DNA from: a virus | DNA: 12,097 bases | Strand: one strand, 5' to 3' | Virus genome (UHGV): UHGV-0124803 | Shown here: positions 1 to 12,097 of the stretch, piece by piece | Numbering within the stretch: position 1 is the stretch's first letter | How the letters are laid out: each line of letters begins with the position of its first letter | Position numbers and translations under genes: made by a program | The notes under the pieces: generated by a model | What the model was told of the DNA's origin: nothing | What the model saw: only the letters and a program-made list of their open reading frames with translations | Database searches by the model: none

Positions 1-49
1 ATGTTTGCAGTTTCAAGGCATTTTCTTAAATCTGCTGGTGATGCCCTGT

Positions 50-700
50 TCATGCAGCACGCTCCCGCCCCTGGATGTCTGTTGGTGACAGCGGAGCATT
101 GCTGAATGCATTTGTTAATCCGCCAATATCCAACGCGTATCCAGGGTGTAGTTGCACTGCCGGGTCTTCGCACTGATTACCCCAAACATCAAAGCCATGA
201 GACGTCTGGCGGGCGAACAGTTCAATGCGAGAAACATCGCCTAATAATTGCACAAGTTTTTCACGAACGATATCTGGCTTTCTTGAATGCTCAAGCCGCG
301 GTGCGGTAAATGACTGAACGATCCCTGCATTAATGCGCGTAGGTAGTTTTCCCTTTACCGCAAACAGGCAATCTTCACTATTGGCGCGAGTCATGTGTCC
401 CATACCCATAACCAGTTTATCTGGTTGTCGACTACCACATTTTATCCACGTGAAGCCCTTCATCGTCATCAGACGGAATCCCCAGGCTTCAACAACTTTT
501 AGTGCTTCGAGTGGTTGTGTTGGCACCCACCACATGGCCAACAGACAGTTTTCATCGGCCAAATCCCATACAGGAAGGCGGCAGATATCCAGCACACTCA
601 TAACCGGATATTTAAAACCGGCACCGCGATTACCATCTGCGGCTTTGTCCCGGTATACCCAGGGTGGATCTGCATAGATTAGTGTGTATTTCTTAGTCAT
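50..700 (-). CDS. MT-A70 family N6-adenine DNA methyltransferase (phage orphan methylase)
   Basis: ORF 50..712; DPPW catalytic motif (YADPPWVY) close to the N-terminus. ATG at 700 (MTKKYT) preferred over the GTG at 712; the upstream ORF stop (693-695) overlaps it. Confidence 0.75.
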   Translation of the reverse strand: MTKKYTLIYADPPWVYRDKAADGNRGAGFKYPVMSVLDICRLPVWDLADENCLLAMWWVPTQPLEALKVVEAWGFRLMTMKGFTWIKCGSRQPDKLVMGMGHMTRANSEDCLFAVKGKLPTRINAGIVQSFTAPRLEHSRKPDIVREKLVQLLGDVSRIELFARQTSHGFDVWGNQCEDPAVQLHPGYALDIGGLTNAFSNAPLSPTDIQGRERAA

Positions 701-941
701 AAACCACCCCACAACATCCTATGCCGCTATAGTCGCCACGGCGAAGGCCGTTACCTTTTGTGATACATTGGTCCCTGCGAACCGCGATCCTTGCACGTTC
801 AACATCACCAGAAGCAACATCCATACACTGAAGCCAAAGGTGAGCGGCAATGCGGAATTGCCCTTTTTTCTCTCTTTCAATCGCGCGTTTTTCGATCTCT
901 ATCGCCGCAGGAGTAACGGCGACAATCTTTGACGGACTGCG
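693..941 (-). CDS. Hypothetical small protein (83-99 aa; start ambiguous: ATG 941, ATG 959 or GTG 992)
   Basis: ORF 693..992 in the same orientation between the AlpA-like gene and the methylase; stop overlaps the methylase start; AAGG 6 nt upstream of ATG 941. No recognisable motif. Confidence 0.4.
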   Translation of the reverse strand, partial: RSPSKIVAVTPAAIEIEKRAIEREKKGQFRIAAHLWLQCMDVASGDVERARIAVRRDQCITKGNGLRRGDYSGIGCCGVVYD

Positions 942-1101
942 CATTGAAACCTTATTCATGTGATATTTTTCAAGTCGGCTTAACTTTCTCACTTAATCCA
1001 ACCCTCTCTGAAAATTAATGCCAGCAGATAAAGCCATGCTGAAACAGAGGCCAGGAATAAGTACCATCCTGACCATTTGCTCCAGTGCCTTAGCAGCGCA
1101 C

Positions 1102-1350
1102 TCATGCAGCGTTGCTCACGGGACGATATACACGTTGCTGAACAGGAGGCTTTTTACCCTGGAACTCTGCCGGGCTTGCTGCCTGACGTTCATCAAGCCA
1201 ACGCTCAACTTCATCACGGTTCCATGCGCAGCGTTTATCGGTGATATACCAGCGTTTAGGAAATTCCCCTGCGCGCTCCATACGGTCGATAGTGCTCCAT
1301 GACAGTGGCACCACCGCCAGGAGTTCCTTCTTACCTAATGCACCTTTCAT
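1102..1350 (-). CDS. AlpA-family helix-turn-helix regulator / excisionase-like protein
   Basis: 82-aa ORF with the AlpA pattern: HTH (LLAVVPLSWSTIDRMERAGEFPK) followed by a W...E..ERWL segment; RBS AGAGAGG upstream of the ATG. Confidence 0.6.
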   Translation of the reverse strand: MKGALGKKELLAVVPLSWSTIDRMERAGEFPKRWYITDKRCAWNRDEVERWLDERQAASPAEFQGKKPPVQQRVYRPVSNAA

Positions 1351-1372
1351 AAATACCTCTCTTGGTTGCAGT

Positions 1373-1391
1373 GCGGCGCGCGTGGCGCCGC
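1373..1391 (-). other. GC-rich hairpin between recT and the AlpA-like gene (7-bp stem GCGGCGC/GCGCCGC, 5-nt loop), no U-tract
   Basis: Perfect inverted repeat read directly from the sequence, 9 nt downstream of the recT stop on the minus strand; lacks the T-run of an intrinsic terminator. Confidence 0.3.
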
Positions 1392-1399
1392 GGTGGTGG

Positions 1400-2422
1400 T
1401 TACTCGAATTCTGGACGCATATCGTTAAGCGTCATCATGAATTTTTGGTGATATTCATCACCGAGCTTTTCAGCCATGGTGTTAATTTCATTTTCAGCGC
1501 GCTTGAACATCGTTTTTGCATCTTCAGCAGATGGATCTAGGCTATTAAGTATCGCGATGATATATTCTCGAGCTTCTTCTCGTTCTGAATCTGAAATTGG
1601 CGACAGGTGTTGACGCTCATCGTCAACTACGGAATATTCACCAGTGATAACAGCTGCGTTATCTTGGCTAAGTCCAGCTTCAGCGCGCTCATCCATAACA
1701 ACAGCCTTCTGCATTTCAATAGAAACAGGAAGATATTTGAACAGTCGGCGAATTACTGTTTTTTTAGCCATCTCATCGAAGTGATCAACCCATGGGCCAC
1801 TGCTACCGGCTTTGCTCAGTGCACGAACTTTCTCAACGTCTGCCCGGCTCATAACTTCAAATTGCACTCCGCCATCTTTCAGTCGTGCAACGGCGTAAAC
1901 GTGCGTTAATTCTCCGCGGTCACCTGTTTCGCAAGGTAAATGCTCGAGCGTTTCTTCCAGGCCGTATGAGTAGCTGAATTTGTCGTTTGTATGTACGGTA
2001 CGAGCCGAGATACTCAGGATCTGCCCAGAGCGGCGGGCAAGGTCAATCATTCCGCGATAGCCGATAATCAGCTGTGCTTCTGTAGATACGGTTTCCCATC
2101 TTCCATTTACTTTCTGGCGTTTGTCGAACGGTATCAGGTAAGCGTGTCCAAGAGCTCCGCCTGGTTCAAGACCCAATTGGGCACATTGCATAATTGCCCC
2201 CAGGAAGCTGGCTTGGTCGCATGATGCAAGTTTTGGAACCTTTCGGATCTCTGTGGTTGCTATGCGCGCCAGACGGTCTGCTGTCATGTGCTTTGGAAGT
2301 GCCAAAGCCATCTGAGCTTTAATTTTTGGGTCTGCCAGAAGTCCGGCCAGAGTTGTTGGTTTCTCATTATGATGTGCAACTTGGTTACCGGTAGCCGCTG
2401 CCTTAAGTGCATTGATAGACAT
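1400..2422 (-). CDS. recT: RecT-family single-strand annealing recombinase with an acidic C-terminal extension
   Basis: 340-aa ORF with RecT-type core motifs (GYRGMIDLARRSGQ, LIPF); strong RBS AAGGAG 7 nt upstream of the ATG; 9 nt after the exonuclease stop. Confidence 0.9.
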   Translation of the reverse strand: MSINALKAAATGNQVAHHNEKPTTLAGLLADPKIKAQMALALPKHMTADRLARIATTEIRKVPKLASCDQASFLGAIMQCAQLGLEPGGALGHAYLIPFDKRQKVNGRWETVSTEAQLIIGYRGMIDLARRSGQILSISARTVHTNDKFSYSYGLEETLEHLPCETGDRGELTHVYAVARLKDGGVQFEVMSRADVEKVRALSKAGSSGPWVDHFDEMAKKTVIRRLFKYLPVSIEMQKAVVMDERAEAGLSQDNAAVITGEYSVVDDERQHLSPISDSEREEAREYIIAILNSLDPSAEDAKTMFKRAENEINTMAEKLGDEYHQKFMMTLNDMRPEFE

Positions 2423-2431
2423 TTTTTCTCC

Positions 2432-3331
2432 TTACTTCATTCTGAAGACGCGTTGTGTCGTTGTTGTTTTGAATTTTTCGAATAACTCAGGGTGTACTGA
2501 CTGGAATAGCTTCTGGTCGAATCTGTTGCTGATCTGAGATTTCCATGTGCAGAGCGGCTTTCCGTCCAGGGTCAGGACTGAGTGCTCTTGCATGTACATC
2601 TTCAGCTTCTCTTCTGATATAGCTATTTCTTCTTCCAGTGATTTTCTGCGTGACTTCATGTCTCGTAGATCGTTGAATAGTGCGAGTGCCTTTCCGTCAG
2701 CCTCGATACTTGTCCCGGCATCTTTCTCAAACATCAGCGATACATCGCTTACGCTGGTAGCTTCCGGCGGGTTAAGATTTTTCACTCGGTCCCAGAAAGC
2801 GATTTCTTTTTCTAAGATCGCCTGGATAGTTTCTTCATCACGCTCAACCCGATAGATTCGGAAGTCGTCGCCACCGATAAGCACACCGAAAACGCATACC
2901 TGTTTGTTTGTAACCATCAACCCGTGCATGGCCTGGGCCGTGTAATGCACAGGAATTGCATCTGTCTGGATTTCTCCCCATTCTTTGGCTTTGAACGGAC
3001 TAACTGTTTTGATCTCAATGTTCTCGCCTGACGCTGCTTCTGCATCGATCTCAGCTGCAATAAAATCGTAATCACGGTGGATATAGCGGTTTCCGCGATG
3101 AACGATTTCCATCCCTGTTTCCTCAGAAAGCAGGTCTATTACGTATGGCTCCATACGCTGGCCACGCGTGAAAACTTTCTGCTTGCTTGGGTCTACTGGT
3201 TTGACACGTGGCTGGACCTTATCCAGATAAACCTCAAGCGGGGTGCGCCATGGGCTAATTCCAAGAATCCCTGCAACATCGCTTCCTCCGATGTATTTTG
3301 TTCTATCCATGATTCCAGCGTTCCGCATCAT
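2432..3331 (-). CDS. YqaJ-type (lambda-exonuclease-like) recombination exonuclease
   Basis: 299-aa ORF; N-terminal YqaJ signature KYIGGSDVAGILGISPWRTPLEVY; the ATG at 3331 overlaps the upstream stop (ATGA coupling), with an alternative internal ATG at 3310 (MDRTKY). Paired with recT downstream. Confidence 0.85.
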   Translation of the reverse strand: MMRNAGIMDRTKYIGGSDVAGILGISPWRTPLEVYLDKVQPRVKPVDPSKQKVFTRGQRMEPYVIDLLSEETGMEIVHRGNRYIHRDYDFIAAEIDAEAASGENIEIKTVSPFKAKEWGEIQTDAIPVHYTAQAMHGLMVTNKQVCVFGVLIGGDDFRIYRVERDEETIQAILEKEIAFWDRVKNLNPPEATSVSDVSLMFEKDAGTSIEADGKALALFNDLRDMKSRRKSLEEEIAISEEKLKMYMQEHSVLTLDGKPLCTWKSQISNRFDQKLFQSVHPELFEKFKTTTTQRVFRMK

Positions 3332-3627
3332 GCCGCGTCCCTCTGCCCATCAAGCTGATCCGCCAGCTCCCAGCGGGCGATAATTGCCATTGCCTCGCGC
3401 CGGTAGGCATCCATCAGTTCTTCGAACTCAGGGCTGTCTTTAGCAGCCTCCAGCACTTCCTGACGAACGCCTTTGCCTGTTACAACGTCGAAAGTTGAGG
3501 CCAGTTGATGAAGCCGGATACTCTCAATCAGTTCAACTTGTCGGTCATATAGCTGTTCTGACAGGCGGTAGTCCTTGTCGAATGCCAGCATGATTTTTTG
3601 AAGATTTTTCTGCTGATTAACGTTCAT
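3328..3627 (-). CDS. Hypothetical protein (99 aa) heading the recombination operon
   Basis: ORF 3328..3642; the ATG at 3627 (MNVNQQ) has a strong RBS GGGAGGG; stop overlaps the exonuclease start. No motif recognised. Confidence 0.55.
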   Translation of the reverse strand: MNVNQQKNLQKIMLAFDKDYRLSEQLYDRQVELIESIRLHQLASTFDVVTGKGVRQEVLEAAKDSPEFEELMDAYRREAMAIIARWELADQLDGQRDAA

Positions 3628-3629
3628 TA

Positions 3630-3782
3630 TCAGCCCTCCCATATCTCGTTATCGTTGGCCACATCGCGAGCTTCTTTGCTGACGAAAGCCCACTTAATGC
3701 CTTCCTGTAAGGTGCGGAACTTCCAGCTCATGAATCCGCATGCAGTAACGCAGTACCAACCGTTGATGATTTTCCACTGCAT
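3630..3782 (-). CDS. Hypothetical small protein (50 aa, Trp/Cys-containing), first ORF after the PL-like promoter
   Basis: Not in the ORF track (under 60 aa). Read by hand: MQWKIINGWYCVTACGFMSWKFRTLQEGIKWAFVSKEARDVANDNEIWEG; RBS GAGGT about 7 nt upstream of the ATG at 3782; stop 2 nt before the next gene start. Confidence 0.3.
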   Translation of the reverse strand: MQWKIINGWYCVTACGFMSWKFRTLQEGIKWAFVSKEARDVANDNEIWEG

Positions 3783-3788
3783 AACTTG

Positions 3789-3793
3789 TTACC
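3789..3793. promoter_or_regulatory. Operator half-site (TTACC) over the RBS of the first leftward ORF
   Basis: Single pentamer matching the half-site of the palindromic operator; could equally be chance. Confidence 0.2.
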
Positions 3794-3801
3794 TCGGCCT
3801 G

Positions 3802-3816
3802 TTACCGCTGAGGTAA
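3802..3816. promoter_or_regulatory. Operator site OL-a (TTACCgctgaGGTAA)
   Basis: Perfect 15-bp palindrome TTACC-N5-GGTAA just downstream of the putative -10 of the leftward promoter. Confidence 0.6.
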
Positions 3817-3844
3817 TGATTATGCGTATTTGGTTTGGTGTCAA
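3817..3844 (-). promoter_or_regulatory. PL-like leftward early promoter (-35 TTGACA at 3844..3839; -10 uncertain, CATAAT or TAATCA at about 3824..3817)
   Basis: Consensus -35 hexamer on the minus strand flanked by two operator palindromes, upstream of the recombination operon; the -10 and its spacing are not clear-cut. Confidence 0.4.
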
Positions 3845-3863
3845 TAGATATGAGTTAAAAAAA

Positions 3864-3878
3864 TTACCCGTAAGGTAA
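3864..3878. promoter_or_regulatory. Operator site OL-b (TTACCcgtaaGGTAA)
   Basis: Perfect 15-bp palindrome, centre 62 bp from OL-a, upstream of the -35. Confidence 0.6.
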
Positions 3879-3888
3879 TCTATCTGGC

Positions 3889-3914
3889 AATAAAAAAGCC
3901 GCCATGAGGCGGCT
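3889..3914 (-). terminator. Rho-independent terminator after the repressor gene
   Basis: 7-bp GC-rich stem AGCCGCC/GGCGGCT with a 4-nt loop, followed on the minus strand by TTTTTTATT; about 20 nt downstream of the repressor stop. Confidence 0.6.
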
Positions 3915-3935
3915 TACTTACTGAAAACTATAGTT

Positions 3936-4520
3936 TTATTGTTTGCTTTTTTCGTTCTGGTTGATGACAAATTCAATGTAACTTTCGATCTTTGCTTTCT
4001 CGGTTTCGGGTAACAATGCGTAGCGTGAGCGGTCATAGTTGATAGTCGCAGGGTCGTGCGGGTGAATCAGTAGTTCATATCCGTGACGCCCGAATGCGGA
4101 TGCAACATTCTCCAGGGTGGAAATGGAAACGCTGACCTCATTGTTTAACAGGCGGCTGATTGTCACCTGGGCGACGCCGGATGCGCGGTGAAGTTTTCCC
4201 TGCGTTGAAAGGTCGCGGCTTTCGCTCATCCAGCGTTCCAGGTTGTGAGCCGCCAGCTGACCAATGTCGCTTGGGCCGACAGGCTGAAAACCTTCCTGAG
4301 AAAGCGAGCGATCGATATCAAGCCAGTTACGTGGTTTATTGGCGGCAGCTTCAATTTTTCGCGCAACCTGGTCGCCGATAACCTTCTTGCCAAGAGCCCA
4401 GCGGTTTACCAGATTTGCCTGAGTTCCAAGTTTTTCTGCCATCCGCGTCTGAACACCATTGAATTCACGGTCGATCAAGTCGTTGAGATTTTGCCTGCGG
4501 ACGTCCTGGATACTTTTCAT
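3936..4520 (-). CDS. Immunity repressor (CI-like function), tandem HTH, no S24 peptidase domain
   Basis: 194-aa ORF divergent from the cro-like gene; two HTH-like segments (around residues 22-45 and 115-145, the second XRE-like: GVAQVTISRLLNNE...SISTLENVASAFG); no Ala-Gly/Ser-Lys autocleavage module visible; flanked by operator palindromes on both sides. Confidence 0.7.
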   Translation of the reverse strand: MKSIQDVRRQNLNDLIDREFNGVQTRMAEKLGTQANLVNRWALGKKVIGDQVARKIEAAANKPRNWLDIDRSLSQEGFQPVGPSDIGQLAAHNLERWMSESRDLSTQGKLHRASGVAQVTISRLLNNEVSVSISTLENVASAFGRHGYELLIHPHDPATINYDRSRYALLPETEKAKIESYIEFVINQNEKSKQ

Positions 4521-4575
4521 TTTCTGGAAAATCGCCTCATATATGAATCAGTAGATGATTCAATTTAAAGCAATA

Positions 4576-4590
4576 TTACCCAACAGGTAA
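4576..4590. promoter_or_regulatory. Operator site OR-a (TTACCcaacaGGTAA)
   Basis: Perfect 15-bp palindrome in the divergent repressor/cro intergenic region. Confidence 0.6.
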
Positions 4591-4620
4591 ATGCACCCCA
4601 TAGGTAACTATCCTTGATTT

Positions 4621-4649
4621 TTGTTACCTTATGGGTGAATATTTATTAT
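4621..4649 (+). promoter_or_regulatory. PR-like rightward early promoter (-35 TTGTTA 4621-4626, 17-nt spacer, -10 TATTAT 4644-4649)
   Basis: Sigma70-like hexamers at 17-bp spacing, about 25 nt upstream of the cro-like ATG; operator OR-b lies in the spacer. Confidence 0.45.
4625..4639. promoter_or_regulatory. Operator site OR-b (TTACCttatgGGTgA, one mismatch)
   Basis: Near-perfect palindrome overlapping the PR-like -35 and spacer; centre 49 bp from OR-a; an extra GGTAA half-site at 4603-4607. Confidence 0.5.
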
Positions 4650-4674
4650 CTGAAATAAATATCAGGCAATAGCT

Positions 4675-4905
4675 ATGAGCGATAACGGACATTTCGATTT
4701 CAAAAAGCACTGGCTTGCACTTACTCCGGATGAGCGTGAAGCCTTCGCACAGGAAGCCGGAACGACGAGTCACTATATCCAGACTCACTTAACAGGTAAG
4801 CGCAAAATGCCAGGTAAGGTATTGATGAATGGGCTTTTTAAAGCCTGTAAAACAAGACAATGGCTGCGCTCAAAAGCAGAACTGGCATACTTCTTCTACT
4901 CATGA
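4675..4905 (+). CDS. Cro-like small DNA-binding regulator
   Basis: 76-aa ORF divergent from the repressor, first gene after the PR-like promoter; HTH-like segment (EREAFAQEAGTTSHYIQTHL). Confidence 0.6.
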   Translation: MSDNGHFDFKKHWLALTPDEREAFAQEAGTTSHYIQTHLTGKRKMPGKVLMNGLFKACKTRQWLRSKAELAYFFYS

Positions 4906-4927
4906 TATCCAGCCACAACCCTCTGTA

Positions 4928-4949
4928 GACCGCCATCCGGCGGTCTTTT
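4928..4949 (+). terminator. tR1-like intrinsic terminator after the cro-like gene
   Basis: 7-bp stem GACCGCC/GGCGGTC, loop ATCC, followed by TTTT; about 23 nt downstream of the cro-like stop. Confidence 0.5.
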
Positions 4950-4960
4950 CATATCTATTC

Positions 4961-4975
4961 GTACCTCAAAGGTAA
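4961..4975. promoter_or_regulatory. Degenerate operator-like site (gTACCtcaaaGGTAA)
   Basis: 14 of 15 positions match the palindrome; lies between the tR1-like terminator and the next gene. Confidence 0.3.
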
Positions 4976-5053
4976 TAAAAAACCAAATCTGGTTGATCAA
5001 ATTTTCCAATTGTGCAAAATAGCCAATATCAATAACAAAAAGGGGCGGAAAAA

Positions 5054-5266
5054 TTGAAGATAGTAACCAGAATGGAGGCCGCAAAAGCCGGGTTAAATCG
5101 CTATTTCACAGGAAAGCGGTGCCGTCACGGCCATCTCTCTGAAAGGTATGTTCTGAACGGAACATGTGTTGAATGTGCAATGAATAGCGCCAACCGCCAT
5201 CGTAATGAATTTGCTTGTGCACTAAAGAGTGCAAGAGGGGAAACCTATGGCAAGCAGCTGGATTAA
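5054..5266 (+). CDS. Small Cys/His-containing protein at the cII position (possible zinc-binding regulator); start TTG 5054 or ATG 5072
   Basis: ORF between the cro-like and O-like genes; pattern C-x-H-x-H ... C-x2-C (CRHGH ... CVEC); GGGG 8 nt upstream of the TTG; no resemblance to lambda CII recognised. Confidence 0.4.
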   Translation: MKIVTRMEAAKAGLNRYFTGKRCRHGHLSERYVLNGTCVECAMNSANRHRNEFACALKSARGETYGKQLD

Positions 5267-6077
5267 GGTTGAAGTTATCACTCCTGATAAACCTGAAATT
5301 TTTCAGATAGCAGAAATTCTGGGTATTGATCCAGATGCTGTTCTTGGAAAGCTGGTTCGTATATGGGCATGGGCTGACCAGCAAACAATAGACGGTAACG
5401 CTGGCAGCGTTACAAAAGGAGTACTTGATAGACTCGCTTTTATTACAGGATTTGCTGACGCCCTCATTAGCGTCGGATGGCTTGCTTATCATGACGGCAA
5501 ACTAATTCTTCCAAACTTTGAGCGACACAATGGAGAATCATCGAAAAAACGTGCACTTACGAATAGAAGAGTGGCAGAGCATCGAAAACGAGTAACGCAA
5601 AAAGTAACGCCAACAGCGTTACAAAAGGAGTTACCAGAGGAAGAGGAAGAGGAAGATATATATAAAACCCCACACATAGCACACGCGCGCGAGAGTGATC
5701 CGACCAGTGAAGCGAACGGTACGCCGTTGCAGGTGGCAGAACCTGCATTTCTGGATGGCCTGAGTGAACCTATTGGGAAATTTCCGATGATCGATGGCTG
5801 GCATCCATCGCCGGATTTTCGACGGCGTGCTGCGCTGTGGGGAACGGCCCTGCCGGAACCGGAATTTACACCTGCTGAACTTGCTGCATTCCGGGATTAC
5901 TGGATGGCTGAGGGCAAAGTGTTCACGCAGGTTCAGTGGGAACAAAAATTCGCCAGGCACGTAAATCATATCAGGGGAAAATCAAAAAACGTCGGGAAAA
6001 GCGATGAGCTTGACTGGAATAACACTGACTGGATAGAAGGGGTGTGGGATGAAATCAACTCCAGAACTTCTCAATGA
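5247..6077 (+). CDS. Replication initiator / replisome organiser (O-like function) with DnaT-like C-terminal domain
   Basis: ORF 5229..6077; ATG at 5247 has RBS AGAGGGGA; acidic linker (EEEEEED); the C-terminal W/F-rich segment resembles the DnaT-type domain; sits immediately upstream of and overlapping the P-like gene; contains the candidate origin repeats. Confidence 0.65.
   Translation: MASSWIKVEVITPDKPEIFQIAEILGIDPDAVLGKLVRIWAWADQQTIDGNAGSVTKGVLDRLAFITGFADALISVGWLAYHDGKLILPNFERHNGESSKKRALTNRRVAEHRKRVTQKVTPTALQKELPEEEEEEDIYKTPHIAHARESDPTSEANGTPLQVAEPAFLDGLSEPIGKFPMIDGWHPSPDFRRRAALWGTALPEPEFTPAELAAFRDYWMAEGKVFTQVQWEQKFARHVNHIRGKSKNVGKSDELDWNNTDWIEGVWDEINSRTSQ
5590..5668. repeat. Candidate replication origin: GTAACGC iterons plus GA-rich and AT-rich tract inside the O-like gene
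   Basis: GTAACGC at 5591-5597 and 5602-5608 (11-bp phasing), inverted GCGTTAC at 5615-5621; the 18-mer CAGCGTTACAAAAGGAGT recurs at about 5405 and about 5614 in different reading frames; followed by GAGGAAGAGGAAGAGGAAG and ATATATATAAAA. Confidence 0.4.
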
Positions 6078-6825
6078 GTACGATCGCTTACGTGAGCATG
6101 GTGTTGCTGTGCATGAAGAGCGGCGTGACAGCAATGGCAAAAAGGAGCAGGTCGCTAGAATTTTCAATGAACTATTTGTCCAGTTACAGGCTGCATTTCC
6201 TGCAAGCGTTTCGACCATAAGGGAGCAGAACAAACTTAATGAATTCCGTAAGCAATGGATGCTTGCGTTTCTGGAGAATGGGATCACTACAATGGAACAG
6301 GTTAACGCTGGTATGCGCCACGCCCGCGCCAGTGAATCTCCGTTCTGGCCGTCGCCAGGGCAATTTATCAAGTGGTGTAAAGACAGCAAGATGGTTCTTG
6401 GCGTCACCATTGACGATGTGATGGCGGAGTTTCACCGGTACAGCAAGGAAAAAAGTTTATATCCTGGTGGTCCCGAAAGATTCCCGTGGCGGCATCCGGT
6501 TATGTACTGGGTCGTATGTGATACCCGCCGTGCAATGTATCAGCGCCAGCTTAGCGAGATTGAGGTTGAGAAACATGCGCGCAGGCTGCTTGATGATTGG
6601 GCGAAAAAGGTGGCTTCCGGACAGCAGATACCCGATCCGGTGATCAGCATACAGGCAAAGCCAGAACCCATGAGTACGCCTCCGGACACAGGGAGAGACG
6701 TTTACCATCCACCAGGGCGAAGTTTCGGGTGTATGCCTAACGCCGCTACCCTGGGGGGAATAACACCGGCGCAGTGGCTGATGGAGGAATACAGGCGGGG
6801 AAAGGCGGCAGGATTTATCAAGTAA
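6049..6825 (+). CDS. Lambda P-family replication protein (helicase loader)
   Basis: 258-aa ORF; the segment FPASVSTIREQNKLNEFRKQWMLAFLENGITTMEQVNAGMRHAR...PFWPSPGQFIKWC closely matches lambda P as I recall it; overlaps the O-like gene by 29 nt. Confidence 0.85.
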   Translation: MKSTPELLNEYDRLREHGVAVHEERRDSNGKKEQVARIFNELFVQLQAAFPASVSTIREQNKLNEFRKQWMLAFLENGITTMEQVNAGMRHARASESPFWPSPGQFIKWCKDSKMVLGVTIDDVMAEFHRYSKEKSLYPGGPERFPWRHPVMYWVVCDTRRAMYQRQLSEIEVEKHARRLLDDWAKKVASGQQIPDPVISIQAKPEPMSTPPDTGRDVYHPPGRSFGCMPNAATLGGITPAQWLMEEYRRGKAAGFIK

Positions 6826-6830
6826 TACCA

Positions 6831-6850
6831 GCGCGATAGCGCATTTTTTT
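6831..6850 (+). terminator. Weak terminator-like element after the P-like gene (GCGC-gata-GCGC then ATTTTTTT)
   Basis: Only a 4-bp stem but a 7-T run immediately downstream of the P stop; low confidence. Confidence 0.3.
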
Positions 6851-6855
6851 ACGTC

Positions 6856-6883
6856 TTGACAATTACCTGTTAGGTAATAAAAT
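6856..6883 (+). promoter_or_regulatory. Third repressor-gated promoter (-35 TTGACA 6856-6861, 16-nt spacer, -10 TAAAAT 6878-6883)
   Basis: Consensus -35 and 5/6 -10 at good spacing; an operator palindrome fills the spacer and a second lies 62 bp downstream at the RBS of the first accessory gene. Confidence 0.5.
6863..6877. promoter_or_regulatory. Operator site O3-a (TTACCtgttaGGTAA)
   Basis: Perfect 15-bp palindrome exactly between the -35 and -10 of the third promoter. Confidence 0.6.
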
Positions 6884-6924
6884 ATTCTAAACTCTATTGA
6901 TTTCGTGTCTTATGTGGTTTTTAA

Positions 6925-6939
6925 TTACCTCTGGGGTAA
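6925..6939. promoter_or_regulatory. Operator site O3-b (TTACCtctggGGTAA)
   Basis: Perfect palindrome 62 bp (centre to centre) from O3-a, the same spacing as the OL pair; 4 nt upstream of the ATG at 6943. Confidence 0.6.
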
Positions 6940-6942
6940 ATC

Positions 6943-7287
6943 ATGAGAAAACAGATACAGGCTCTTGGTCGACTCAAAACAGGCCAGATGAACAAAACAG
7001 AATCTGCGTATTGCCAGCACCTTGAGCAGCGTAAACGTGCAGGGGAAATCGCCTGGTATCGATTCGAGGGTATCAAGCTGCGGTTAGCTGACAACACGTT
7101 CTATACGCCCGATTTTGCTGTGATGCTCGCCACCGGCGAGATGGAACTGCACGAAGTGAAAGGTTTCTGGACCGACGATGCCAGGGTGAAAACCAAAGTC
7201 GCCGCAGATCAGTATCCGTTCCGAATCATCGGGGTAACGGTTAAGCCAAAGAAAGCAGGTGGTGGCTGGAACATCGAAGAGTTCTGA
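6943..7287 (+). CDS. DUF1064-like putative PD-(D/E)xK nuclease
   Basis: 114-aa ORF; pattern KTESAYCQHLEQRKRAGEI...YTPDFAV...ELHEVKGFWT matches my recollection of the DUF1064 / restriction-endonuclease-like fold (D ... E-x-K). Confidence 0.5.
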   Translation: MRKQIQALGRLKTGQMNKTESAYCQHLEQRKRAGEIAWYRFEGIKLRLADNTFYTPDFAVMLATGEMELHEVKGFWTDDARVKTKVAADQYPFRIIGVTVKPKKAGGGWNIEEF

Positions 7288-7348
7288 ATCGACGATCTTT
7301 TTAGTTATCAATGTAATCAATAAGTTATGTGGATAAGCGAGGGTAAAG

Positions 7349-7831
7349 ATGGAAAGTAATATCAAAGGGTTAGTTGCCGCCGGGCATGAGATGGCTTCGG
7401 AACTGAAAGCAGAATGTGGTGCCGTTGATATGCGCAGTGTGGCAAAGCTGATCAGCGATTTGGCAACGCAACTGGAAGTTCAGTTGGTGCGTGCTAATGC
7501 GCTGGCGGCGGAGAATGCGGCGTTTAAGGACATAAACGCATGGTGCAAAACAGATGCGTTCAGCAACATGTATCGTGAGTTCAAAACAGCAGAAGCAGTT
7601 GGATGTTGCAACATTGACTGTATGCATGACGCAATGGTGGTCGCAATTATGCACGCACCAGAAGCGCCAGCCACCGATGTTTTTCTGGCTGAAATTGAAC
7701 GCAAAGCAATCCGCAAATTCATTAACAGCATTGAACACATCCTGCGTGACAAGCTGTATCCGTATGACACCGAAGAGATGCTTGAGGCTATGCGTATTTT
7801 TCTGGAAGAACAGGGAGGCGAGCAAAAATGA
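7349..7831 (+). CDS. Hypothetical protein (160 aa)
   Basis: ORF with RBS GAGGG 5 nt upstream of the ATG; stop overlaps the next start (ATGA); antisense ORFs here are Cys/His-rich and lack RBSs. Confidence 0.55.
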   Translation: MESNIKGLVAAGHEMASELKAECGAVDMRSVAKLISDLATQLEVQLVRANALAAENAAFKDINAWCKTDAFSNMYREFKTAEAVGCCNIDCMHDAMVVAIMHAPEAPATDVFLAEIERKAIRKFINSIEHILRDKLYPYDTEEMLEAMRIFLEEQGGEQK

Positions 7832-8145
7832 CGATCACAAAACAACGTGTAGAAGAAATCATATCCCGCATTGAAATGTATGGGCATGGTGCAGGGTATA
7901 CCGCTGACGAGGTTTATGACCTGGCTGTACTGGCGCTGAATTTATCAAATATCGCAAACCTGAAGCGATACGAGCTTGATATGGATGGTTGTGACTCGTT
8001 CGGTCAGGATTGTGGAGCTGACATGACTGAAGATTCTGATGGCGATTATGTCCTGTTTGATGACGTGGTTAAGTTGTTTGAGTTTGATACAACCACTCAG
8101 AAGCCAGAAAGCCCAGCAAAGGAGGCAACCAGTGAGCGAAATTAA
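7828..8145 (+). CDS. Hypothetical acidic protein (105 aa); N-terminal module shared with the 9111 protein
   Basis: RBS AGGGAGG upstream; N-terminus MTITKQRVEEIISRIEMYG resembles MTTITKERLLTIKQWRETYG of the 9111..9941 product. Confidence 0.5.
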   Translation: MTITKQRVEEIISRIEMYGHGAGYTADEVYDLAVLALNLSNIANLKRYELDMDGCDSFGQDCGADMTEDSDGDYVLFDDVVKLFEFDTTTQKPESPAKEATSERN

Positions 8146-8818
8146 TTACCAGGCACTGCGTGAGGCGGCGGAACGTGCAATTCCGGCAATGGAACGCCTG
8201 TTAATGTTGCCAGTTGATGATGATTTGTTAAGTGAACAGGAACTTAAAGATTACGGTGTGGATATTGATGCGCTCAACGCCTTCAAATTTCTGACCGGAC
8301 CAGAAACCGTGCTGGCACTACTGGATGAACGGGAAAGGAACCAGCAATACATCAAACGCCGCGACCAGGAGAACGAGGATATTGCGCTTACGGTTGGGAG
8401 GCTGCGCGTTGAGCTGGAAGGCAAAGACAGCAAAATAGCCAATCTTACCGCCGAACGCGATGCTCTTCGTGAAGGTGAGATGGGCGACGCTAGGCATAGC
8501 AACACACGGGCCGCAGCTGATATCTACTTCCAACTGGTCGAGGAGTGCGAAATTCCTGCTGGCGGATCTCTGGTCGAGTACGTTGACGATATGCGCGAGA
8601 AGCTGGAAGCCGCAGAGAAGCGCATTGCAGAGTTAGAAAGTGGTTCTGAGGCACAAAAGTTAGTTGAAGCAATCATTGTTGCGATAGAAAACGAACAGGA
8701 AAGGCTTTTTGATGAAGATTACCTAATGGATTCGAAAGAATGCATTGACGTAATTCGTGAAGAAGTAAAGCGATGGAATGATTCCCGTGCCGCTGGCATT
8801 CGCATCAAAGGAGAGTGA
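8132..8818 (+). CDS. Ea22-like family protein (coiled-coil)
   Basis: GTG start at 8132 with RBS AAAGGAGG 6 nt upstream (the track ORF starts further upstream at 8039); segment LLDERERNQQYIKRRDQENEDIALTVGRLRVELE matches my recollection of prophage Ea22-like proteins. Longer than lambda Ea22, so a homologue rather than the lambda gene. Confidence 0.55.
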   Translation: MSEINYQALREAAERAIPAMERLLMLPVDDDLLSEQELKDYGVDIDALNAFKFLTGPETVLALLDERERNQQYIKRRDQENEDIALTVGRLRVELEGKDSKIANLTAERDALREGEMGDARHSNTRAAADIYFQLVEECEIPAGGSLVEYVDDMREKLEAAEKRIAELESGSEAQKLVEAIIVAIENEQERLFDEDYLMDSKECIDVIREEVKRWNDSRAAGIRIKGE

Positions 8819-8819
8819 T

Positions 8820-9107
8820 ATGGCAACTTTGCAGGAATTAATCGACCTGACGCCAGAACAGGAAAAAGCGTGGAATCGCCTTGTGAAGGCTGTAAAGGAT
8901 TTCAGGGCAGCCGGAGGAAAGTTTTATAGCGTCCTGGACACGCTGAGCGCATACAACGGCGAGCACGTTGCCAGCATTGATAACGATAAGGGCTACCACA
9001 CTGCAAGCGTCTATATGCCTAGCATTGATGCGCCAGGGCTAACCAGTTGGGCTGATGATTGGCACGGCATCACGCTGAAAGATGGCGTTGAAGTGGATGA
9101 GGACTAA
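8820..9107 (+). CDS. Hypothetical protein (95 aa)
   Basis: ATG at 8820 with RBS AAGGAGAG 5 nt upstream, immediately after the Ea22-like stop; no recognisable motif. Confidence 0.5.
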   Translation: MATLQELIDLTPEQEKAWNRLVKAVKDFRAAGGKFYSVLDTLSAYNGEHVASIDNDKGYHTASVYMPSIDAPGLTSWADDWHGITLKDGVEVDED

Positions 9108-9110
9108 CAC

Positions 9111-9941
9111 ATGACCACTATTACCAAAGAGCGACTACTGACAATCAAGCAGTGGCGCGAAACATACGGACCTGGTAGCAACGTTGTACTGCCAGCAGAA
9201 GAAGCGGAAGAGCTGGCACGGATTGCGCTGGCATCGCTGGAAGCAGAGCCTGTTCTGTATCAGTCCTGCACTCGCCCCACCTGGAATAGCGGTGTTCCGT
9301 GGACGGAATGGAAAGAACGTAGTCGTGAGGGCTACGAAGACGATTTGCGCTTTACAGACACGCCTGACCATGCCGGTTGGATAAACAAATGCCGAAAACT
9401 ATATACCACTCCGCCAGCGCCGGTAATACAGGCTGATGTCGCGCAAGCAATTGAAAATCTCAAGCAGAAGTTAGTGGAATGCAATCGCTATAACTACTGC
9501 GCAGATGCAGTTAAAGGCGTAGAGGATGCCTGCCGTGCTGTTAGCTATAGCCAAGCCGACAATCAACCAGCATCTGGCAACCAGGCTGCCGAATCCAATC
9601 GCAGTAATGAGTGGACCGGCAATCCTGATATTGATAACGCCATCATCATGCTCGACCGCATAGATACGCTGGAAAATTGCGATGATGACCGTATTGAGGC
9701 GGTTAAGGCTGTTTTGCGTAGACTGGCTGGCAACTATCCGGTAACTCCGGATGGTTGGATAAGCTGTAGTGAGCGAATGCCGGATAAGTTAATTCCGGTA
9801 ATGGTCATGTATGAAGACGGTGAGATGTGGTCTGCAATGTGGAATGGCAATCGCTGGGATGATGGCACCGAATATCCGGATCCGCACTCAGTTACGCACT
9901 GGCGTGAAATGCCAGCAGCACCGCAGCAGGAGGTGAAGTGA
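9111..9941 (+). CDS. DUF551 domain protein
   Basis: 276-aa ORF; C-terminal GWISCSERMPDKLIPVMV ... VTHWREMPAAP matches the DUF551 pattern as I recall it; RBS GAGGA upstream. Confidence 0.55.
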   Translation: MTTITKERLLTIKQWRETYGPGSNVVLPAEEAEELARIALASLEAEPVLYQSCTRPTWNSGVPWTEWKERSREGYEDDLRFTDTPDHAGWINKCRKLYTTPPAPVIQADVAQAIENLKQKLVECNRYNYCADAVKGVEDACRAVSYSQADNQPASGNQAAESNRSNEWTGNPDIDNAIIMLDRIDTLENCDDDRIEAVKAVLRRLAGNYPVTPDGWISCSERMPDKLIPVMVMYEDGEMWSAMWNGNRWDDGTEYPDPHSVTHWREMPAAPQQEVK

Positions 9942-10162
9942 TGGACTCCTTCGCGAAATATACGATTATTGACTGGATAGCCTTCCTTCAGGTTTTGCTC
10001 ATCTGGTTTTATATGGCTTACAGGAGTGGACAGTGGATTGTCAGTGTAGCCTGTAGCAAGGGATGGCGTTGGTGGAACCGAAAGAATAAAAAGCGCTGGC
10101 CTTGGATTCGTTTTACGAAGCATTCAATCTTAACAGTCTTCAGCCTGGTTCTGTCGTTGTAG
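9941..10162 (+). CDS. Small hydrophobic (probable membrane) protein, 73 aa
   Basis: ATG overlaps the upstream stop (TGATG); hydrophobic N-terminal helix (IIDWIAFLQVLLIWFYMAY), basic W/R/K-rich middle, hydrophobic C-terminus. Confidence 0.35.
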   Translation: MDSFAKYTIIDWIAFLQVLLIWFYMAYRSGQWIVSVACSKGWRWWNRKNKKRWPWIRFTKHSILTVFSLVLSL

Positions 10163-10216
10163 TCACCACTCAAAGCGGCATGACGATACAAATTCACAAG
10201 CCAAAGGAGGAAGGTC

Positions 10217-10501
10217 GTGGCTAACCTGCAACTTGCCGTTAAAGGTGAATACTTCGATGCCATGATTCGCGGAGAGAAAACGGAAGAGTATCGCCTGTGT
10301 AATGACTACTGGAATAAGCGAATTATGTTCCGCGAGTATGACCGCCTGATTATCACAAAGGGATATCCGAAGCGCGACGATTCCAGCCGCAGAATTGACG
10401 TCCCGTATGACGGATATGAAATCAAGACAATCACACATCCCCACTTCGGTGATAAACCGGTAAAGGTGTTCGCGATAAAGGTGAATATCGGCAATGAATA
10501 A
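10217..10501 (+). CDS. ASCH/PUA-like domain protein (DUF3850-like), 94 aa
   Basis: GTG start with strong RBS AAAGGAGG 6 nt upstream; pattern LQLAVKGEYFDAMIRGEKTEEYRLCND resembles ASCH/DUF3850 proteins as I recall them. Confidence 0.5.
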   Translation: MANLQLAVKGEYFDAMIRGEKTEEYRLCNDYWNKRIMFREYDRLIITKGYPKRDDSSRRIDVPYDGYEIKTITHPHFGDKPVKVFAIKVNIGNE

Positions 10502-10573
10502 CAATCCTCGCACTCGCGGGGATTTCTTTTATCTGAACTCGCTACGGCGAGTTTTGTTTTATGGAGATGATAA

Positions 10574-10741
10574 ATGCACTTCCGAGTCACAGGTGAATGG
10601 AATGGAGAACCATTCAACAGAGTTATCGAAGCAGAGAACATCAATGACTGCTATGACCACTGGATGCTGTGGGCGCAGATAGCACATGCAGACGTAACCA
10701 ATATTCGAATTGAAGAACTGAAAGAACACCAAGCCGCCTGA
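10574..10741 (+). CDS. 55-codon small ORF upstream of xis (resembles my recollection of a lambda orf-55)
   Basis: Hand-read ORF MHFRVTGEWNGEPFNRVIEAENINDCYDHWMLWAQIAHADVTNIRIEELKEHQAA with RBS GGAG 7 nt upstream; the stop is embedded in a terminator hairpin; not in the ORF track. Confidence 0.4.
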   Translation: MHFRVTGEWNGEPFNRVIEAENINDCYDHWMLWAQIAHADVTNIRIEELKEHQAA

Positions 10742-10753
10742 TGGCGGTTTTTT
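10733..10753 (+). terminator. Intrinsic terminator hairpin immediately upstream of xis
   Basis: Stem GCCGCC/GGCGG(T), loop TGAT, followed by TTTTTT. Confidence 0.5.
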
Positions 10754-10754
10754 C

Positions 10755-10768
10755 TTGCGTGTAATTGC
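10755..10768 (+). promoter_or_regulatory. pI-type CII-activated promoter box (TTGC-N6-TTGC: TTGCgtgtaaTTGC)
   Basis: Tetrad repeat with 6-bp spacing placed so that transcription would start inside xis; this is the lambda pI arrangement as I know it. Confidence 0.5.
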
Positions 10769-10780
10769 GGAGACTTTGCG

Positions 10781-10999
10781 ATGTACTTGACACTTCAGGA
10801 GTGGAACGCACGCCAGCGACGCCCAAGAAGCCTTGAAACAGTTCGTCGATGGGTACGCGAGTGCAGGATATTCCCTCCTCCGGTTAAGGATGGAAGAGAG
10901 TATCTGTTCCACGAATCAGCGGTAAAGGTTGACTTAAATCGACCAGTAACAGGTAGCCTTTTGAAGAGGATCAGAAATGGGAAGAAGGCGAAGTCATGA
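10781..10999 (+). CDS. xis: Excisionase Xis (lambda-type)
   Basis: 72-aa product MYLTLQEWNARQRRPRSLETVRRWVRECRIFPPPVKDGREYLFHESAVKVDLNRPVTGSLLKRIRNGKKAKS, which I recognise as lambda Xis; 23-nt overlap with int as in lambda. Confidence 0.95.
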   Translation: MYLTLQEWNARQRRPRSLETVRRWVRECRIFPPPVKDGREYLFHESAVKVDLNRPVTGSLLKRIRNGKKAKS

Positions 11000-12047
11000 G
11001 CGCCGGGATTTACCCCCTAACCTTTATATAAGAAACAATGGATATTACTGCTACAGGGACCCAAGGACGGGTAAAGAGTTTGGATTAGGCCGAGACAGGC
11101 GAATCGCAATCACTGAAGCTATACAGGCCAACATTGAGTTATTTTCAGGACACAAACACAAGCCTCTGACAGCGAGAATCAACAGTGATAATTCTGTTAC
11201 GTTACATTCATGGCTTGATCGCTACGAAAAAATCCTCGCCAGCAGAGGAATCAAGCAGAAGACTCTCATAAATTACATGAGCAAAATTAAAGCAATAAGG
11301 AGGGGTCTGCCTGATGCTCCACTTGAAGACATCACCACAAAAGAAATTGCGGCAATGCTCAATGGATACATAGACGAGGGCAAGGCTGCGTCAGCCAAGT
11401 TAATCAGATCAACACTGAGCGATGCATTCCGAGAGGCAATAGCTGAAGGCCATATAACAACAAACCCGGTCGCTGCCACTCGCGCAGCAAAATCAGAGGT
11501 AAGGAGATCAAGACTTACGGCTGACGAATACCTGAAAATTTATCAAGCAGCAGAATCATCACCATATTGGCTAAGACTTGCAATGGAACTGGCTGTTGTT
11601 ACCGGGCAACGAGTTGGTGATTTATGCGAAATGAAGTGGTCTGATATCGTAGATGGATATCTTTATGTCGAGCAAAGCAAAACAGGCGTAAAAATTGCCA
11701 TCCCAACAGCATTGCATGTTGATGCTCTCGGGATATCAATGAAGGAAACACTTGATAAATGCAAAGAGATTCTTGGCGGAGAAACCATAATTGCATCTAC
11801 TCGTCGTGAACCGCTTTCATCCGGCACAGTATCAAGGTATTTTATGCGCGCACGAAAAGCATCAGGTCTTTCCTTCGAAGGGGATCCGCCAACCTTTCAC
11901 GAGTTGCGCAGTTTGTCTGCAAGACTCTATGAGAAGCAGATAAGCGATAAGTTTGCTCAACATCTTCTCGGGCATAAGTCGGACACCATGGCATCACAGT
12001 ATCGTGATGACAGAGGCAGGGAGTGGGACAAAATTGAAATCAAATAA
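10977..12047 (+). CDS. int: Tyrosine integrase Int (lambda-type)
   Basis: 356-aa product starting MGRRRSHERRDLPPNLYIRNNGYYCYRDPRTGKEFGLGRDRR, essentially lambda Int as I recall it; catalytic-region motifs HELRSLSARL and LGH...SQYRDD...W present. Confidence 0.97.
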   Translation: MGRRRSHERRDLPPNLYIRNNGYYCYRDPRTGKEFGLGRDRRIAITEAIQANIELFSGHKHKPLTARINSDNSVTLHSWLDRYEKILASRGIKQKTLINYMSKIKAIRRGLPDAPLEDITTKEIAAMLNGYIDEGKAASAKLIRSTLSDAFREAIAEGHITTNPVAATRAAKSEVRRSRLTADEYLKIYQAAESSPYWLRLAMELAVVTGQRVGDLCEMKWSDIVDGYLYVEQSKTGVKIAIPTALHVDALGISMKETLDKCKEILGGETIIASTRREPLSSGTVSRYFMRARKASGLSFEGDPPTFHELRSLSARLYEKQISDKFAQHLLGHKSDTMASQYRDDRGREWDKIEIK

Positions 12048-12097
12048 TGATTTTATTTTGACTGATAGTGACCTGTTCGTTGCAACAAATTGATAAG
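12044..12097. other. attP P' arm: Int arm-type sites (P'3, P'2, P'1) and IHF H' site; window ends before the core
   Basis: Window sequence is the reverse complement of the lambda P' arm as I recall it: arm-type sites at 12044-12053, 12055-12064, 12065-12074 (rc AGGTCACTAT and relatives) and an IHF-like TATCAATTTGTTG on the minus strand at about 12084-12096. Confidence 0.8.

Follow-up and report, generated by a model that had tools for sequence, protein, structure and literature searches.

The question raised by the locus described here is what a run of eight small, tightly packed genes does in a temperate phage element and, in particular, whether it is directed against the defences of the bacterial host. 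The genes occupy positions 6943-10501 of a stretch of the virus genome UHGV-0124803—the window, that is, the whole 12,097 nucleotides (nt) that were analyzed—which corresponds to bases 891-12987 of locus L004 and to approximately positions 44,735-56,831 of the European Nucleotide Archive contig ERZ784339 NODE_27, with a coverage of ~11x. Judging from gene content and order, the block appears to be the early-right distal region of an epsilon15/phiV10-type (Uetakevirus) prophage of Escherichia coli. It is probably an operator-gated early unit, silent in the lysogen, in which an invariant junction nuclease is followed by a shuffled tail of mostly acidic proteins that would tune the lysis–lysogeny decision and/or host physiology. 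Overall, the block can be regarded as an ordinary, widespread phage accessory region and as a reasonable, unproven place for anti-defence genes.

The eight genes, referred to as g1-g8, are as follows.

g1, 6943-7287, plus strand: 114 amino acids; DUF1064 protein, a predicted PD-(D/E)XK nuclease resembling T7 endonuclease I
g2, 7349-7831, plus strand: 160 amino acids, acidic (isoelectric point, pI, 4.9), 'Eae-like'; N-terminus conserved, C-terminus variable
g3, 7828-8145, plus strand: 105 amino acids, very acidic (pI 4.1); N-terminal module like that of g6
g4, 8132-8818, plus strand: 228 amino acids, GTG start, pI 4.5; Ead/Ea22-like coiled-coil protein
g5, 8820-9107, plus strand: 95 amino acids, acidic, with a predicted compact alpha/beta fold; motifs LTPEQ, NG, and ADDxH
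g6, 9111-9941, plus strand: 276 amino acids; C-terminal DUF551 domain and N-terminal 'MTTITK...ALASLEAEP' module; mosaic allele with a joint at ~9784/9785
g7, 9938-10162, plus strand: 74 amino acids, GTG start; DUF4752 protein with an N-terminal transmembrane helix, frameshifted at an A5 run (10088-10092)
g8, 10217-10501, plus strand: 94 amino acids, GTG start; ASCH-like protein, motif GEKTEEYR (GxKxxExR)

In the open reading frame (ORF) listing of the window, these eight consecutive plus-strand ORFs cover 3440 of the 3559 nt (~97%). Overlaps of 4, 14, and 4 nt join g2 to g3, g3 to g4, and g6 to g7, respectively, spacers of 1 and 3 nt separate g4 from g5 and g5 from g6, and a Shine-Dalgarno sequence precedes the downstream gene at each of these five junctions, with true intergenic gaps found between g1 and g2 (61 nt) and between g7 and g8 (54 nt). 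The tight, translationally coupled packing described in the initial annotation was thus borne out, apart from these two real gaps, as were the gene positions, except that the Ea22-like gene starts at a GTG at 8132 (the mechanical ORF begins at 8039) and the 95-amino-acid gene at 8820 (mechanical start, 8778). All eight products match PHROG families (E-values from 1e-16 to 1e-66), and the products g2-g6 have pI values of 4.1-4.9. The DUF1064, Ead_Ea22, DUF551, and DUF4752 domains score above their Pfam cut-offs and ASCH below; of the families named at first sight, DUF1064, Ea22, and DUF551 are therefore supported by Pfam, and the ASCH call agrees with the motif and with the RefSeq name, but the supposed 'small membrane protein' is a truncated DUF4752 protein. 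NCBIfam gave nothing meaningful for the eight products, sequence searches of the PDB (with g1, g2, g3, g4, g6, g8, and a g5 profile) gave no significant relative for any of them, and an Rfam scan of the whole window gave nothing. Exact copies of seven of the eight proteins are present in public genomes, several of them in at least 1000 contigs and that of g6 in one contig only, and the exact sequence of the truncated 74-residue g7 product was absent from the public-genome records searched.

Variant sites concentrate at the third codon positions of the plus strand, indicating that this is the coding strand and, together with the PHROG matches and the exact copies on record, that the eight ORFs are genuine genes. 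Minus-strand ORFs of up to 151 codons also lie inside the block, and two of them match PHROGs: one opposite the ASCH gene (10163-10513, minus strand; PHROG 20945, 4e-65) and one opposite the Ea22 gene (8251-8505, minus strand; PHROG 13760, 1e-20). In view of the codon-position pattern, these were rejected as genes and taken to be shadow ORFs, and both PHROGs appear to have been built from mis-called ORFs of this kind.

The features from which the regulation of the block was deduced are the following.

6831..6850, plus strand: weak terminator-like hairpin, GCGC-GATA-GCGC and then T7, after the replication gene P
6856-6883, plus strand: predicted sigma-70 promoter of the block itself; TTGACA, 16 nt, TAAAAT; 11 of 12 consensus positions
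6863-6877, unstranded: operator-like palindrome 1, TTACCTGTTAGGTAA, filling the promoter spacer
6925-6939, unstranded: operator-like palindrome 2, TTACCTCTGGGGTAA, 3 nt 5′ of the g1 start codon
3936..4520, minus strand: prophage repressor, presumed trans-acting gate of the block promoter; 194 amino acids, two helix-turn-helix domains, operator clusters on both sides
10503-10524 and 10535-10554, plus strand: two terminator-like hairpins directly 3′ of the ASCH stop codon, part of the lambdoid segment

The hairpin after P was missed by the terminator scan because its stem is shorter than 5 base pairs; in phiV10, the same sequence carries the annotation of a putative rho-independent terminator, and it is conserved in an alignment of the window, EC69, and phiV10. 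The hairpin would separate the block from the PR transcript. Immediately downstream lies the top-scoring promoter-like site within positions 4400-12097, the −35 hexamer of which is weaker in EC69 and phiV10 than in the window. The palindrome that fills its spacer, TTACC-N5-GGTAA, occurs in 7 copies in the window against 0.17 expected, with the other copies at PL (3802-3816 and 3864-3878), at PR (4576-4590 and 4624-4638), and after cro (4961-4975). Its half-sites are constant and the central N5 varies among the window, EC69, and phiV10, and the same distribution of palindromes was found in phiV10 and in an intact relative (L164). The presumed repressor contains a TreR-like helix-turn-helix at residues 111-148. 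The ORF21 repressor of phage ZX5, to which the left 7.5 kb of the window is 97.9% identical, has been verified by over-expression (PMC9782041). Because an operator-like palindrome occupies the promoter spacer, the block should be silent in the lysogen, and repressor binding would set the timing of its expression. The repressor-gated promoter proposed in the initial annotation is thus upheld at the level of prediction, and in a more direct form than read-through from PR, that is, as a dedicated promoter with operator-like sites. Promoter and terminators of its own would also be expected of a moron, but the repressor-type operator-like sites on this promoter predict silence in the lysogen.

At the other end, the two hairpins at 10503-10554 would bound the transcription unit and insulate orf55-xis-int from it. 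Together with the fact that no N-like antiterminator was identified in the window, they suggest that transcription of the upstream operon would not extend into xis and int.

This operator motif also appears to precede many of the transcription units of Uetakeviruses. In intact relatives, the palindrome was observed 5′ of the integrase gene, in two copies directly 5′ of the small terminase gene, and near the portal gene (in L164 at 1200, 13330, 13348, and 16495; in L003 at 48). An obvious Q-type antiterminator is lacking there, and one regulator may gate nearly every Uetakevirus transcription unit.

The fixed element of the block is its first gene. The g1 product scores above the cut-off for Pfam DUF1064 (31.1 versus 24.7 bits), matches phrog_190, 'Holliday junction resolvase' (6e-43), and contains the candidate catalytic residues E20, D57 (PD57), E71, and K73 (E71-V-K73) of a PD...ExK motif. 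Its alignment to T7 endonuclease I (gene 3), a protein of similarly small size, covers the YTPDF...ETKGLW part of that enzyme and is marginal (E = 0.2), with the core motif, YTPDF...E-x-K-G-(L/F)-W..D.R.K, matched exactly (YTPDF...E.KG.W..D.R.K). A further PDB match, to Bax1, is weak. The protein belongs to DUF1064 and not to Phage_endo_I (15.4 bits, below the cut-off of 29.1). Among 80 viral contigs (L005-L084) chosen for a DUF1064 protein 97-100% identical to g1, a g1 homologue lies directly 3′ of P in all 80. By homology and position, g1 most likely trims or resolves branched intermediates of replication and recombination, as do Rap and RusA in lambdoid phages; its predicted nuclease activity is probably a housekeeping one.

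Downstream of g1, conservation gives way to shuffling. A g2-like gene was found in 77 of the 80 relatives, in nearly all at the same offset after DUF1064, with identities of 41-100% that often extend over the N-terminal third only. The genes beyond it are patchy, with g3 present in 9 relatives, g5 in 2, DUF4752 in 13, and ASCH in 43. In the 68 loci containing both anchors—DUF1064 on one side and the regulator or terminase gene on the other—62 gene orders made up of 47 single-linkage protein families were counted, with the anchors 1.2-4.8 kb and 2-12 ORFs apart. The comparison of neighborhoods across prophages that had been recommended at the outset thus revealed a hypervariable accessory region. 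A second set of 78 loci around g5 homologues (L085-L162) showed where the seams lie. The gene 5′ of g5 belongs to 26 clusters, and in 40 of 77 cases its product ends in ...I(K/R)G(E/G), the window having ...GIRIKGE; the gene 3′ of g5 starts 3 nt after it in 69 of 76 cases and usually begins with MTT(I/F)T...ALASLEAEP. Proteins 3′ of g5, from differing families, end in ...PQQEVK-like tails, and ...PQQEVK also precedes DUF4752. Such short conserved junctions, which encode the end of one protein together with the ribosome-binding site for its successor, are likely to be points of recombination.

The cassettes themselves are known to very different degrees. The g2 product matches phrog_492 (8.6e-43), and its N-terminal 73 residues match phrog_250, a family that also covers Ea22-like proteins; it has no Pfam, NCBIfam, or PDB match. 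The g3 product matches phrog_3126 (1.4e-66), and the best 120 of its 269 matching clusters each share at least 77% identity with it, which indicates a narrow family; its N-terminus resembles that of g6 (42% identity over 38 residues; hhalign probability 55%, E = 1.2e-4). The g4 product, found exactly in 60 contigs, is a clear Ead_Ea22 protein (PF13935; 100.6 bits against a cut-off of 27, residues 2-169). The Ea22 proteins of lambda and of Shiga toxin (Stx) phages form tetramers and are pro-lysogenic (PMC7093339, PMC10834534), with C-terminal domains that are interchangeable and in one variant bear DUF551 (PMC10834534); the C-terminal domain of g4 differs from that of the published proteins. 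The g5 product is predicted to fold confidently (predicted local distance difference test score, pLDDT, 92.8), and no structural relative of its fold was found in the PDB or BFVD. Matches of the g5 profile to TPR proteins were discarded as spurious, with no stretch within the E-value limit.

The C-terminal domain of g6 is a DUF551 domain (PF04448; 65.7 bits against a cut-off of 22, residues 215-272), which among its homologues is swapped for other C-terminal domains. The exact g6 sequence is known from the source contig only. In prophage CPS-53, the DUF551 protein YfdS has a part in inhibiting DnaA-dependent initiation (PMC4776307). The g7 product matches DUF4752 (PF15944; 50.6 bits against a cut-off of 27) over profile positions 2-45 of 84 only, since one A has been lost from the run at 10088-10092: the run is A5 in the source contig alone among 22 copies examined and A6 in 20 other loci. 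The intact allele encodes 94 residues and would overlap the ASCH start by 8 nt, and alignment to the intact gene of EC69 placed the lost C-terminus in the frame of ORF 10102-10224. The shortened run reflects either inactivation by a recent mutation or a sequencing error at low coverage. A literature search on DUF4752 gave nothing. The g8 product matches phrog_625 (1.8e-51) and falls below the cut-off for Pfam ASCH (PF04266; 14.3 versus 21.2 bits), and RefSeq names an identical protein 'ASCH domain protein'. Its gene is the last of the variable region in 43 of the 80 Uetakevirus loci and adjoins orf55-xis in lambdoid prophages at att-lambda (L002 and L169).

A further proposal, regarded as doubtful, is that at least one of the uncharacterized proteins is a new type of early host-takeover or anti-defence factor. 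Its most specific form concerns the g5 family, with the confident orphan fold, the NG and ADDxH motifs, and the neighbors described above: g5 would pair with the modular proteins that start 'MTTITK...ALASLEAEP', the N-terminal module of which would act as a shared adaptor bringing exchangeable C-terminal effectors (DUF551, DUF551 plus a 3′-5′ exoribonuclease, and others) to a host target. Beside one g5 homologue, a 527-residue protein (L092:4292-5875, plus strand) was observed to combine the N-terminal module with DUF551 and an Rv2179c-like 3′-5′ exoribonuclease (1.7e-74); enzymes thus do become fused behind the shared module and DUF551.

Among known systems, the closest is the corresponding region of phiV10 (genes 45-55) and likewise of epsilon15, ZX5, TL-2011b, and PAS61, which lies in the same place after the DnaT-like gene and P, with the same terminator, the same pair of operators, and DUF1064 as the first gene. 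The phiV10-type regions also share the Eae-like and Ead/Ea22-like genes and the terminal ASCH gene, and the matched pieces are 97-98% identical at the DNA level. phiV10 differs in having other small ORFs in the middle, in having no g3, g5, or DUF4752, and in that its block closes, in place of xis-int, with the regulator gp55 at the genome end beside terminase. The exo-xis ('ea') region of lambda, Stx, and P22-like phages (Ea22, Ea8.5, orf60a-73) is likewise an early, non-essential mosaic of small proteins including Ea22-type ones, and as a whole biases phage development and host gene expression (PMC10834534, PMC7093339, PMC10789677). The DUF551 C-terminal domain, DUF4752, and ASCH cassettes are 97-100% identical in lambdoid att-lambda prophages (L002 and L169) beside xis. 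However, the exo-xis region belongs to the N-antiterminated PL operon between exo and xis, whereas the present block mostly lies 3′ of the replication genes with its own promoter: it lies behind P on the rightward side, opposite in strand to the recombination genes at 1400-3331, and true exo-xis locations were also found only for the cassettes at 9785-10501. The genes recognized in the block do not include Ea8.5 or the conserved orf60a-orf73 cassette. The nin region of lambda, with Rap (NinG) or RusA, is similarly placed between replication and late genes and consists of a junction nuclease and dispensable ORFs, and a NinX-like gene occurs in the corresponding slot of relatives; it differs in nuclease family (DUF1064 here, not Rap or RusA), in that no Q antiterminator follows the block, and in that the block has its own promoter. 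Finally, the yfdQRST cluster of CPS-53 is also an early prophage cluster with a DUF551 protein, YfdS, and its over-expression inhibits DnaA-dependent initiation (PMC4776307), but homologues of YfdQ (DUF2302) and YfdR (HD domain) are absent from the block, so that DUF551 is all that is shared. In short, all eight families had been catalogued before, the exact sequences of most of the proteins are common in E. coli, and the region type is familiar; new, to a modest degree, are the operator-filled promoter, the seams at the junctions, the cassettes that Uetakevirus and lambdoid prophages have in common, the hybrid and frameshifted state, unique to this contig, and the orphan fold of g5.

The most probable scheme is the following. 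The block would be the distal portion of the early-right arm, with a promoter of its own, and would hold the place of the lambda nin region; a weak terminator after P, followed by a sigma-70 promoter with a repressor-type palindrome in its spacer, would keep it off in the lysogen and allow expression early after infection or induction. The invariant g1 nuclease would serve replication and recombination. The coupled cassettes behind it are assembled from a few modules, namely the Ea22 coiled coil, an N-terminal helical module of ~45 residues, the DUF551 C-terminal domain, g5, DUF4752, and ASCH, and their mostly acidic, non-essential products most likely bind host or phage partners and bias lysis–lysogeny and host physiology, in the manner of the exo-xis genes of lambda; a role against host defences is possible for some of them. 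At its 3′ end, the block would have been joined, via cassettes common to both phage types, to the orf55-xis-int segment of a lambda-type att-lambda prophage.

Several points weigh against this scheme. For g2, g3, g5, g6, and g8, function is deduced by extrapolation from analogues that are distant or correspond in position, and phenotypes have been described only for relatives of Ea22 and DUF551, these being mild. The assignment of g1 as a nuclease leans on a weak PDB E-value, the 0.2 given above, plus the motif, and the AlphaFold2 model of g6 is unusable (pLDDT 45, from an alignment of 48 sequences). The TTACC-N5-GGTAA palindrome could serve Cro or another regulator, and in L164 it also stands 5′ of int and terminase. 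In addition, only one contig, of 11x coverage, shows the join to xis-int, which could be an assembly chimera.

No biochemically defined function is available for any of the eight products, though the cassettes are very common; the statement in the initial annotation that none has an experimentally defined role is nevertheless too strong, as relatives of Ea22 and DUF551 (YfdS) have phenotypes. The block is a tractable test bed—an operator-gated operon with one fixed nuclease, a shuffled tail, and anti-restriction cargo in relatives—and yields five small acidic proteins, the orphan-fold g5 among the candidates, for screening of host targets and anti-defence activity. It also illustrates gene trade between Uetakevirus and lambdoid phages through short conserved junctions. 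Should no protein have such activity, the block would be one more mosaic accessory region of temperate coliphages.

With regard to host defence, a tentative possibility, unlikely but compatible with the scheme above, is that at least one of g2, g3, g5, the g6 modules, and the ASCH-like protein inhibits host immunity (restriction, RecBCD, or signalling/abortive infection) early in infection. The predicted early, repressor-gated expression, the acidic products, and the confidently folded orphan g5 are in keeping with such a role, as is the extreme turnover of cassettes, which would be expected of an arms race but is also shown by neutral or selfish cassettes. None of the eight products matches a component in PADLOC-DB 2.0 at E ≤ 0.1, a known anti-defence family in Pfam, or a family in NCBIfam, which argues against the proposal and agrees with the original observation that the block contains no complete known defence system. 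The phenotypes of the published relatives point instead to control of lysis–lysogeny and replication. A literature search linking the exo-xis region or ASCH domains to anti-defence gave nothing specific.

The cargo of the same slot in relatives was therefore of interest, and 150 representatives of 182 protein clusters, found between DUF1064 and the regulator or terminase gene and among the g5 neighbors, were scanned. DUF551 (34) and Ead_Ea22 (33) mosaics form the majority, followed by dATP/dGTP pyrophosphohydrolases (3), NinX (2), an HNH protein, and the 3′-5′ exoribonuclease behind the N-terminal module and DUF551 (1). One representative matches the Lar restriction alleviation protein (7.8e-9), one is Mom-like at a score below the Pfam cut-off, and the PADLOC type II and orphan methyltransferase models are matched by one each (8.8e-73 and 1.7e-49); a motif scan points to L016:8016-8501 as a likely methyltransferase. 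The presence of Lar, methyltransferase, and Mom-like proteins in the slot raises the prior for an anti-defence role of the uncharacterized g2-g8 products, without being proof, and the pyrophosphohydrolases can be counted on the same side. Anti-restriction genes thus do occur in this slot in some phages. The PADLOC DpdH model was also matched by 4 of the 150 representatives (best E = 4.8e-37); ten long slot proteins were tried as the source of the DpdH-like and methyltransferase matches, and none gave them.

Nor is the block clearly the best place in the window to look for anti-defence functions, as had been suggested. An MT-A70 family DNA methyltransferase (50-712, minus strand) stands at the end of the leftward early operon and is a more tangible one, being a classical candidate for self-protection (anti-restriction). 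In intact relatives, a second accessory hotspot was observed on the minus strand between the large terminase and portal genes, occupied by a Gp49-family or a Tad2-like gene; the Tad2-like gene (PF11195, 85.7 bits) lies at L166:15141-15437 (minus strand) and is present also in L167 and L168, with an alternative gene in L163-L165. Tad2-like proteins are a known anti-Thoeris family. The recognized anti-defence family of this lineage thus sits in the other slot, which likewise speaks against a counter-defence role of the present block.

The origin of the layout is a separate matter. Bases 1-10488 match Uetakevirus phages (phiV10, TL-2011b, ZX5, and PAS61) and E. coli prophages at guaA. Intact relatives at guaA with an exact g2 contain int, MT-A70, RecT, exonuclease, and repressor genes on one side and, on the other, cro, DnaT-like, P, DUF1064, the genes for 160, 105, 228 (Ead_Ea22), and 95 residues, a DUF551 gene, a 112-residue regulator, and terminase; genes identical to g1-g5 are followed in such relatives by the DUF551 gene, the regulator, and terminase. 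From 10489 onward, the sequence is a lambda-type orf55-xis-int beside ybhC, an arrangement also found in lambdoid prophages and in the prophage remnant that E. coli B and C have at att-lambda. Between these, 8701-9784 is 100% identical to the guaA Uetakevirus L164, 9785-9920 matches a lambdoid prophage (L002) and a Uetakevirus locus (L019) equally, at 100% identity, and 9921-10488 is 97-99.5% identical in both phage kinds. The near-identity of 9785-10488 in both kinds shows that the DUF551 C-terminal domain, DUF4752, and ASCH cassettes are common to Uetakevirus and lambdoid prophages, and the crossover that attached xis-int would lie within them. A Uetakevirus/lambdoid crossover at 9784 was considered and dropped, 9785-10488 being 97-100% identical in both; only the switch at 10489 is certain. 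The element also has two integrases, lambda Int beside ybhC at the right end and a P4-type one beyond the left edge of the window.

The element is accordingly taken to be a hybrid, one parent being a Uetakevirus of the guaA type and the other a lambdoid prophage at att-lambda. It is rather unlikely that the layout is instead an assembly chimera, in which a guaA Uetakevirus prophage has been linked in silico to an att-lambda lambdoid remnant across the DUF551/DUF4752/ASCH cassettes that both contain, the frameshift in DUF4752 then being a sequencing error. Of 5426 complete E. coli genomes, 4066 match parts of the window, as do 641 phage records, but the layout of replication genes, block, and xis is reproduced in none of these complete genomes or records, none of which covers at least 80% of the window, and no one-piece, high-identity match to 9500-10100 (g6 to DUF4752, across the 9784/9785 joint) was found in the 5426 genomes. 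The confinement of the exact g6 allele to one contig, the coverage of only ~11x, and the 97-100% identity of the shared cassettes in both contexts would also fit a chimera. Furthermore, a true crossover between direct repeats at guaA and att-lambda would, as inferred from gene orientations, delete ~1.8 Mb. Insertion of a circular phage genome, by a single crossover, into an att-lambda remnant already in place would, however, give this order without deletion, and short-read assemblers usually break at such repeats. Whichever holds, the position 'between replication genes and xis' assigned in the initial annotation is peculiar to this contig: every relative examined ends at the regulator and terminase (Uetakevirus), or carries the right-hand cassettes in a lambdoid PL operon.

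Very improbable is a prophage-encoded defence or superinfection-exclusion function expressed in the lysogen, such as a DUF4752 membrane protein that blocks DNA entry: DUF4752 does have an N-terminal transmembrane helix and many prophage accessory genes are defence genes, but the only promoter has an operator-like site in its spacer and a second one downstream, which argues that the genes are off in the lysogen, the promoter and terminator scan found no internal plus-strand promoter-like site and no moron-type promoter–gene–terminator unit in the block, PADLOC gave nothing, and the DUF4752 gene is frameshifted here.

Beyond the prophages discussed above, DUF551, Ead/Ea22, ASCH, and Eaa cassettes also occur on the phage records RCS47, PH444, and BP9 (~115-138 kb), and 583 of 9970 matching places in E. 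coli genomes are plasmid-borne, indicating that the cassette pool extends beyond lambdoid and Uetakevirus prophages. In the att-lambda remnant of E. coli C, a pseudogene (L169:691-1449, minus strand) is annotated by RefSeq as a member of the anti-CBASS Acb1 family.

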